This document shows, piece after piece, positions 52,074 through 53,829 of a stretch of DNA of 64,000 nt. The stretch is from the NCBI RefSeq assembly GCF_009931435.1, contig NZ_CP043414.1. One strand, 5' to 3'. This DNA comes from Escherichia coli. Lineage in GTDB: Bacteria > Pseudomonadota > Gammaproteobacteria > Enterobacterales > Enterobacteriaceae. The stretch's first letter is position 1; every line of letters begins with the position of its first letter. The notes below the pieces were generated by a model. That model was given only the letters and a program-made list of their open reading frames with translations. It was not told the origin of the DNA and made no database searches. The position numbers were made by a program, and so were the translations under genes.

Positions 52074-52374
52074 TACCGTTGTCTCTCTTCCAGGTTTACT
52101 CCTGATAGAAAGTCATCGGCATTTGACGGTAATTACTTACGACTAAAAACCTCTTTGCGTCACATTTTTACAACAATTATTGCAGAGAAGATTAATGCCA
52201 TTGGATTGAAGAAAGTGAGGAATGGTTAAACTGGCTAACCCGAATGACGAAAAATTCTGGAAAACAGCACGCAATTTCGTCAGGTGATTATTTTCGTCCC
52301 TAAGGAAACCACATAGGATGCTCACGGGTGCCTGAGACTTTCTGTTTTCAGGCTAACCGGGAATCAGAAAGACG

Positions 52375-52413
52375 AAGGCCCCGACCGATATTTCTATCAA
52401 CCGAGGCCAACGA

Positions 52414-52440
<27 letters not shown>
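52375..52440 (-). ncRNA. sokB: Putative sokB antisense RNA of the hokB locus (approximate position)
   Basis: Placed only by analogy with hok/sok architecture (antisense over the mok start region); boundaries not determined from sequence. Confidence 0.3.
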
Positions 52441-52621
<181 letters not shown>

Positions 52622-52692: not shown

Positions 52693-52866
52693 TCAGTTAG
52701 TGCATGTTTTTTTCGATGCACTAATAGAACCATCATTACAGACAAATTTGCCGCCTGCCGTACAGTGTGAGATCCCCCCTTTCGAACCAGAACAGGGTTT
52801 GCGCCCGGCATCGGCATAAAAGGAAACAAGCGCTCCCATAACCAAGATAAGTGCCAATTTTTTCAT
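52693..52866 (-). CDS. ydcA: Small secreted protein YdcA (57 aa)
   Basis: GGAGG RBS; MKKLALILVMGALVSFYADAGRKPCSGSKGGISHCTAGGKFVCNDGSISASKKTCTN; below the ORF-track cutoff. Confidence 0.7.
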   Translation of the reverse strand: MKKLALILVMGALVSFYADAGRKPCSGSKGGISHCTAGGKFVCNDGSISASKKTCTN

Positions 52867-53056
52867 ATAACCTCCATGATTTATCGAATCTTATGTTCGA
52901 TTTGAACGTTATACGCTGGTTTATTTTGATACCGTTGATGAGATCAAAGATCGGGTGAATTGATTAAAGATAAGCCAGATGGACATATGGACAAGGATTA
53001 TGGTTTTATTTGTCATACAAATAAATATAATAGGCGCTTCCGATGTAGGCCCGTAT

Positions 53057-53120
53057 TCTTCGCCTGTACCACGGGTCGGTTTTAGTACAGGCGTTTTCTT
53101 TAAATATCCTTCAGGAACGT
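53057..53120 (+). ncRNA. rydC: Hfq-dependent small RNA RydC
   Basis: cttccgatgtaggcccgtattcttcgcctgtaccacgggtcggttttagtacaggcgttttctt matches the recalled RydC sequence; terminal hairpin plus U-run; overlaps the cybB 3' end on the opposite strand. Confidence 0.65.
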
Positions 53121-53641
53121 TTACGCGGCATCATGCGTAGAAGTGTGTTGTCCTTCCAGAAATAGTGGTGTGCCAGTGCAGCCGCAGCGTGCAACCCGAT
53201 GACAAAATATCCCAGATTCGCCAGCGTCTCATGCCACCACTTTAAGCTATCAACCCGTTCGAAATTGGCCTCTGCTGCATAAGGCATTGTCATACCAAAC
53301 GCAAACCACGGGTTGCCCCGGTTATACATCATCACCAAACCAATCACTGGCAGCGCAATAAACAGGAGATAGATCACCAAATGTCCCAAATGTGCCAGTC
53401 CCGTCATCATCGGTTTTGGTTTAGGTACAATCGGCGGAGTTGAGTATTTAAGCCTTAACAAAAGACGAACAACCATCAGCACGAGAATTGAGATGCCACA
53501 GGAAACATGAATCATGTTGATGAGCGGCCGATCGCTACGTGGGAAGAAACCACGAAACTCCATTGCGCAATACGCTGCGATAACCAACAAAAAGACCAGC
53601 CAGTGAATGCTGATTTGTAACCTTGAGTATTTATTTTCCAT
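53111..53641 (-). CDS. cybB: Cytochrome b561
   Basis: 176 aa from the ATG at 53639-53641 (MENKYSRLQISIHWLVFLLV...); conserved His ligands. Confidence 0.9.
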   Translation of the reverse strand: MENKYSRLQISIHWLVFLLVIAAYCAMEFRGFFPRSDRPLINMIHVSCGISILVLMVVRLLLRLKYSTPPIVPKPKPMMTGLAHLGHLVIYLLFIALPVIGLVMMYNRGNPWFAFGMTMPYAAEANFERVDSLKWWHETLANLGYFVIGLHAAAALAHHYFWKDNTLLRMMPRKRS

Positions 53642-53829
53642 AACATTTCCTGCTTTAACATAATTTTCCGTTAACATAACGAGCTTTTCTTAAAATTTCA
53701 TTAAATATTGTTCACCCGTTTTCAGTACGTTACGTTTCACGGCAAGAATGTAGATTGCCCATCCCGCCATCCTGGTCTAAGCCTGGAAAGGATCAATTTT
53801 CATCCGAACGTTCCTGACAGGAGAAGACC

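Follow-up and report, generated by a model that had tools for sequence, protein, structure and literature searches.

The rydC sRNA gene of an Escherichia coli chromosome is convergent with cybB and ends ten nucleotides before its stop codon

The window, as we call the whole stretch of DNA analysed here, comprises 64,000 nucleotides of an Escherichia coli genome (contig NZ_CP043414.1). We scanned all of it against Rfam at gathering thresholds and found matches to two families, sok and RydC. The RydC match (RF00505) spans the entire model, positions 1-64 of 64, and lies on the + strand at 53037..53100. At 90.5 bits (E 1.6e-16; gathering score 48), the match is far above chance level. The genes around it are, in order, trg, sokB/hokB, ydcA, rydC, cybB, gapC and aldA; the features discussed below are collected in Table 1. 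ydcA, which points away from rydC and shares the strand of cybB, is the next gene in the path of a transcript that reads through from cybB. The cybB product matches the NF008566 equivalog with 372.7 bits over profile positions 1-176, using residues 13-188 of the open reading frame at 53111..53677, and the gene is annotated under this name both in K-12 and in the closest genome. Its stop codon, TGA, occupies 53111..53113 and is read as TCA on the + strand. An open reading frame on the + strand that spans rydC (52979..53140, 53 aa) was disregarded as a mechanical one.

Table 1. Coordinates of the features at the rydC–cybB locus (window numbering)
Feature	Position	Strand	Basis or remark
ydcA	52693..52866	−	NCBIfam NF007462, 144.8 bits; K-12 annotation
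15-bp perfect palindrome ATTTGTCATACAAAT	53008..53022	.	-29..-15 of rydC start; candidate YieP operator
rydC -10 box TATAAT	53026..53031	+	read from sequence; same in K-12
RydC sRNA	53037..53100	+	64 nt; 65-nt form ends at 53101; Rfam RF00505, K-12 alignment, K-12 Term-seq
Single-stranded 5' seed CUUCCGAUGUA	53037..53047	+	invariant in 8 of 8 aligned RydC sequences
Pseudoknot stem 1, 5' arm	53048..53054	+	RydC nt 12-18; holds A13G at 53049
Pseudoknot stem 2 (terminator hairpin), 5' arm	53061..53069	+	RydC nt 25-33
Pseudoknot stem 1, 3' arm	53071..53077	+	RydC nt 35-41; alignment pair count
Pseudoknot stem 2 (terminator hairpin), 3' arm	53085..53093	+	RydC nt 49-57
U-rich 3' tail UUUUCUU(U)	53094..53101	+	sequence; K-12 Term-seq ends; terminator tail, Hfq proximal-face site
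Spacer TAAATATCCT	53101..53110	.	10 nt, RydC nt 64 to cybB stop codon
cybB (cytochrome b561 / superoxide oxidase)	53111..53641	−	176 aa + stop; NCBIfam NF008566

The flanks of the locus yielded several further observations. A hokB/sokB type I toxin-antitoxin locus adjoins ydcA (52326..52477 and 52472..52621, both on the + strand), with support from the Rfam sok family (114 bits, 52326..52477) and from the Hok family (100.8 bits). In E. coli E69 and in E. whittamii, sok occurs as a tandem duplicate whose copies lie about 500 bp from each other (L005 1742..2389 and L006 1135..1783). On the other side, gapC at 53830..54831 (+) encodes an intact 333-aa type I GAPDH (TIGR01534, 444.6 bits); it is also intact in the closest genome and is a pseudogene in the K-12 annotation. 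The closest RefSeq genome (NZ_CM177019.1) annotates neither a rydC nor a sokB ncRNA, with both sequences present (rydC at L002 2658..2721), and among the records compared, only that of K-12 carries the two ncRNA features.

A preliminary description of this DNA had recognized a RydC sequence on the + strand, in a very compact convergent arrangement with cybB on the opposite strand. The full-length Rfam match and the cybB coding sequence bear out its identity, its strand and its orientation. The same description had placed the sRNA at 53057..53120, its end falling within the final codons and stop of cybB. In the Rfam match, however, position 53057 is nucleotide 21 of RydC, the true span lies exactly 20 nt upstream, and a 10-nt gap separates the RNA from the stop codon. 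The overlap that had been claimed thus arose because the coordinates were shifted by +20 nt, a counting error. The mapped RydC and the cybB coding sequence have no base in common, the gap being 10 nt in the window and 9 nt in the K-12 annotation.

The comparison with K-12 gave the same layout. In the K-12 RefSeq record, cybB occupies 1490902..1491432 (+) and rydC 1491442..1491506 (−); the two do not overlap and belong to the order aldA, gapC (pseudogene), cybB, rydC, ydcA, yncP, hokB/mokB/sokB and trg. The window carries this locus in the opposite orientation, and according to the alignment a K-12 coordinate equals 1544543 minus the window coordinate. The window sequence can be aligned position by position with the annotated K-12 gene (1491442..1491506) and differs from it by a single substitution, A13G at 53049, the other 63 of the 64 bases being the same. 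From 53049 onward, through the spacer and the 3' end of cybB, the alignment shows the window and K-12 to be alike. We used this near-identity to carry the 5' and 3' ends of RydC over from K-12. By Term-seq, the 3' ends of K-12 rydC fall at 1491443 and 1491442 on the − strand, supported by about 1.25 million and 2.4 million reads, respectively (Adams 2021, PMC7815308, supplementary file 1). In these tables the sequence column gives the 3'-end nucleotide with 50 nt before it and 10 nt after it, a layout that we verified on sgrS. The two RNAs therefore end in ...GGCGUUUUCUU and ...CUUU, which correspond to window positions 53100 and 53101, 9-10 nt short of the cybB stop codon. The label 'antisense to cybB' that these ends carry merely denotes an end on the opposite strand and at most 50 bp from the gene (PMC7815308). 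We conclude that the feature in the window is almost certainly the already known E. coli rydC gene in its normal chromosomal context.

We aligned eight RydC sequences, namely those of the window, K-12, E. albertii, two divergent E. coli, E. whittamii, the Salmonella-like locus and C. koseri. Nucleotides 1-12 are unchanged in all eight, and the seed lies outside both helices of the RNA. This 5' seed pairs with target mRNAs (PMC4337610). The two pseudoknot helices (12-18/35-41 and 25-33/49-57) were taken from the literature, and their pairs were then counted on the alignment. In stem 1, all seven pairs are standard in the eight sequences. The pair 13-40 (alignment columns 13 and 41) is A-U in five of them and G-U in three, and the A13G substitution of the window, which turns A-U into G-U, leaves the helix intact. 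The nine pairs of stem 2 are likewise formed in every sequence; in the Salmonella-like locus and in C. koseri, four of them carry compensatory changes of both bases. Altogether, 128 of 128 pseudoknot cells (100%) form standard pairs; when the 3' partner was slid by 1-3 columns, the proportion was 26-47%. With eight sequences only, the covariation support for the RydC pseudoknot is modest but consistent. A minimum-free-energy fold of RydC alone was set aside, as such a fold cannot represent a pseudoknot and its z of −1.05 is not significant.

Stem 2 followed by UUUUCUUU on the + strand makes a Rho-independent terminator, and K-12 has the same sequence here. Stem 2 is absent from our terminator scan because its 15-nt loop exceeds the limit of the scanner. 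The scan did return a terminator-like match at 53062..53076, which we rejected as the RydC terminator: it is an alternative pairing within RydC. The tail also belongs to the Hfq-binding surface, in which Hfq contacts U61, U62, C63 and U64 of RydC (PMC4337610). The UU steps U23/U24 and U46/U47 touch the rim of Hfq (Dimastrogiovanni et al. 2014, PMC4337610), and the window RydC has both loop steps, as UU at nt 23-24 and as UUUU at nt 44-47.

Upstream of 53037 we found a perfect -10 box and no recognisable -35 box; the published account of the rydC promoter likewise calls the -10 box perfect and sees no obvious -35 box (Bianco 2024, PMC11340327). Close to the -10 box lies the palindrome ATTTGTCATACAAAT, of which this is the sole perfect match within the 64-kb window. 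It fits the motif atTTGTaTGAcaAAT obtained for YieP by ChIP-exo (Nguyen-Vo et al. 2020, PMC7642389). Its offset is constant in 10 of 10 rydC loci (Escherichia, the Salmonella-like locus and C. koseri), in which the promoter is conserved as well, and farther upstream the sequences of the Salmonella-like and C. koseri loci are unrelated. In K-12 and in strain E69 the palindrome has one mismatch (ATTTATC... in K-12). YieP represses rydC about 20-fold (PMC11340327), and the paper that showed this repression left the operator unnamed (Bianco et al., PMC11340327). Because the palindrome matches the motif and is conserved at a fixed offset, we regard 53008..53022 as the likely YieP operator.

The locus is nearly universal among complete E. 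coli genomes. An 821-bp neighbourhood (52880..53700) is present in 5416 of 5426 such genomes, and a 77-nt stretch made up of RydC, the spacer and the cybB stop codon in 5415 of the same 5426. All 5415 cover at least 80% of the 77 nt, and among the ten matches listed the stretch is gap-free at 100% coverage. In 1115 of the 5415 matching genomes, or about 21% of the complete E. coli set, it is identical to that of the window, which makes G13 a common allele; the same base is found in E. albertii, E. whittamii and one more Escherichia species. As a separate observation, only 10 of the 5416 genomes share at least 99% identity with the 821-bp stretch of the window, the best reaching 99.4%, and the window would thus come from a less commonly sequenced lineage.

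The observations so far are consistent with the following course of events. RNA synthesis would begin at 53037; the sigma-70 promoter there, which has a perfect TATAAT and no -35 box, is overlapped by a YieP-type operator palindrome. Transcription would stop at 53100 or 53101, at the intrinsic terminator of RydC itself and 9-10 nt before the convergent cybB stop codon. The resulting RNA of 64-65 nt is expected to fold as an H-type pseudoknot, leaving the 5' seed free, to bind Hfq through its U-rich tail and the loop UU steps, and to act in trans. Activation of cfa mRNA is the best-documented effect of RydC, and both its Hfq dependence and its targets are known from E. coli and Salmonella (PMC11340327, PMC4337610). 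The present analysis established the identity of the RNA, where and on which strand it lies, its distance from cybB, and the conservation of pseudoknot, promoter and operator motif; Hfq dependence, the targets, YieP repression and the K-12 3' ends are taken from the literature.

The preliminary description had also suggested that the compact arrangement could couple the expression of rydC and cybB. We scanned genome contigs with the strict pattern CTTCCGATGTNNNCCCGTNTNCTTCGCCTG, which returned six Escherichia loci only; other genera were reached through homologues of CybB, which gave nine non-Escherichia cybB loci, and Rfam RydC was checked beside each. In the six Escherichia loci and K-12, RydC nt 64 and the cybB stop codon are separated by 8-10 nt. 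Outside Escherichia, rydC adjoins cybB at only two of the nine loci. One is C. koseri, where the gap is 36 nt and contains a cybB terminator, CCCCGCGTAATGCGGGGTTTCTTTT at L009 2043..2061 (ACCCCGCGTAATGCGGGGT, then TTCTTTT), which places the terminators of the two genes back to back. The other is the Salmonella-like locus, with a gap of 99 nt; its methyltransferase neighbour and its 66-nt RydC fit the published Salmonella arrangement. Rfam detected no rydC within 1.5 kb of cybB in C. rodentium, C. amalonaticus, the Citrobacter freundii-group, Enterobacter, Klebsiella grimontii, Pseudocitrobacter and one further locus. In Klebsiella, rydC sits between ecr and yebY (Bianco 2024, PMC11340327), and in E. 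aerogenes it is also next to ecr (Bianco et al., PMC11340327). Direct abutment on cybB is characteristic of Escherichia and does not hold for RydC loci at large, and this restriction argues against a conserved coupling mechanism. With tight spacing confined to Escherichia and seven of nine other cybB loci lacking an adjacent rydC, the suggested coupling did not find support.

How cybB transcription ends is a separate matter, and here Escherichia does stand apart. A terminator scan of the window returned no terminator-like site on the − strand from the cybB stop codon to ydcA. We also ran a hairpin scan of our own over the 160 nt downstream of the cybB stop codon, across loci. In C. koseri, K. 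grimontii, C. amalonaticus and the Citrobacter freundii-group, a GC-rich hairpin and a run with 7 T in 8 bases follow cybB within 5-20 nt. Among Citrobacter and Klebsiella loci, then, several have a canonical intrinsic terminator right after cybB (L009, L013, L014 and L015), and two more loci have weaker or more distant candidates within the 160 nt. The same scan revealed no canonical hairpin with a T run after cybB in the window, in K-12 or at the Salmonella-like locus. Past cybB, both the window and K-12 have a single strong − strand hairpin, formed by the reverse complement of RydC stem 2. A stretch of ten untranslated nucleotides does not give Rho enough RNA to act on; more than 50 nt are required according to Adams 2021 (PMC7815308). 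Given no cybB terminator and a spacer too short for Rho, cybB transcripts of Escherichia probably continue antisense across rydC; the absent terminator is what points to this.

If so, the two transcripts could overlap and be coupled even with RydC stopping short of cybB, the terminator-less cybB mRNA running antisense over rydC and possibly as far as ydcA. The cybB 3' UTR, perfectly complementary to RydC, could then pair with the sRNA and deplete it, or the duplex could be cleaved, or converging polymerases could interfere with the rydC promoter, in a manner like that of GadY and gadX. In favour of such coupling are the terminator-free − strand between the cybB stop and ydcA, the cybB terminators of the four named loci where the window and K-12 have only the reverse complement of RydC stem 2, and the ten untranslated nucleotides that are insufficient for Rho. 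In addition, the separate cybB terminator of C. koseri marks the Escherichia layout as a distinct state. Against it, the Term-seq sheets examined, a part of the Adams 2021 dataset, list no K-12 cybB 3' end past the stop codon and none near ydcA. YieP, moreover, strongly represses RydC under standard conditions, and our literature search found no paper tying cybB to RydC levels or expression. Furthermore, rydC lies away from cybB at seven of the nine other enterobacterial loci and in Klebsiella; being mostly not beside cybB elsewhere, it cannot have coupling to cybB as part of its conserved function. On balance, we consider transcript overlap with coupling unlikely.

The Term-seq sheets examined give a lone 3' end on the cybB strand of K-12, at 1491416 (+), within the coding sequence and with a low count of 1024 (Adams 2021, PMC7815308). 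It corresponds to window position 53127 (−), 16 nt short of where the cybB coding sequence stops and in the loop of a small hairpin; the RydC 3' end, on the other strand, is 26-27 nt away. Processing and polymerase collision are both possibilities for the origin of this internal end, which could be the footprint of a collision. The anti-RydC 3' UTR of cybB in Escherichia may act as a cis-encoded sponge or processing partner of RydC, or converging polymerases may set the 3' ends of cybB, a proposal that we hold to be quite improbable. Were it true, expression of the superoxide oxidase would be linked to the membrane remodelling that RydC controls. The SMRT-Cappable-seq supplements make no mention of cybB, ydcA or rydC. 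Likewise, the text and supplement of Nguyen-Vo 2020, in which we sought cybB expression in the yieP deletion, where rydC is derepressed, do not mention cybB.

Alternatively, the RydC hairpin could be a bidirectional terminator that also ends cybB, with transcripts overlapping by the hairpin only. A − strand hairpin is indeed predicted, with an 11-bp stem and a fold of −29.8 kcal/mol over a 121-nt stretch, and it starts 17 nt past the cybB stop codon. The U-tract, however, is found on one side only, UUUUCUUU being the tail on the + strand and AAGAAUAC that on the − strand, where 1 U in 8 leaves the required tract missing. Nor does the scan find a terminator on the cybB strand, and the K-12 Term-seq sheets used here have no 3' end by the hairpin on the K-12 + strand, which is that of cybB, with the proviso that low cybB expression could hide ends. 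These points make a shared terminator very unlikely. As for the literal reading, in which the RydC RNA itself covers the last cybB codons and the stop, a weak + strand hairpin at 53120..53141 in the cybB 3' end (8 pairs, 3 GC, tail AGTGTGTTGT) could end a longer, read-through RydC, but the Rfam boundaries, the K-12 annotation and Term-seq all put the end at 53100 or 53101, and the Term-seq portion used here lists no further 3' end on the RydC strand between the neighbouring table entries and none at 53120..53141, which makes this reading hardly credible.

We therefore return to rydC as the known gene, separate from the cybB coding sequence. Since rydC, its adjacency to cybB, the pseudoknot, the Hfq complex, the targets and the repressor have all been published already, the significance of the locus is small. 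The analysis yields corrected coordinates for rydC and a clear negative, namely that no part of the sRNA lies within the cybB coding sequence. It also provides a small lead, in that cybB of Escherichia apparently has no terminator of its own and its mRNA probably runs antisense through rydC.

Among known systems, bidirectional terminators occur at many convergent gene pairs, and Ju et al. are said to have described, in 2019, intrinsic terminators of this kind at convergent genes. The locus resembles them in having one GC-rich hairpin between convergent units, here 10 nt apart. It differs in that the U run is on the RydC side only, with AAGAAUAC on the cybB side and no cybB end there in the K-12 Term-seq sheets used. 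A second parallel is GadY, a cis-encoded sRNA that, in work of 2004 attributed to Opdyke et al., reportedly overlaps the 3' UTR of the convergent gadX. Here too an sRNA gene is convergent with a protein gene, and the 3' UTR of the mRNA is probably complementary to the sRNA. For GadY, however, the overlap and the processing and stabilisation of the mRNA have been demonstrated, whereas for rydC and cybB it is the absent terminator that suggests an overlap; moreover, unlike GadY, RydC has established trans targets, which it reaches via its 5' seed. The closest counterpart is RydC itself, as known from K-12 (b4597) and Salmonella, with which the window shares the seed, the pseudoknot and the U-rich terminator tail. 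The window and K-12 are also alike in the TATAAT promoter, the divergent ydcA and the convergent cybB, and differ in A13G only, by which an A-U pair of stem 1 becomes G-U.
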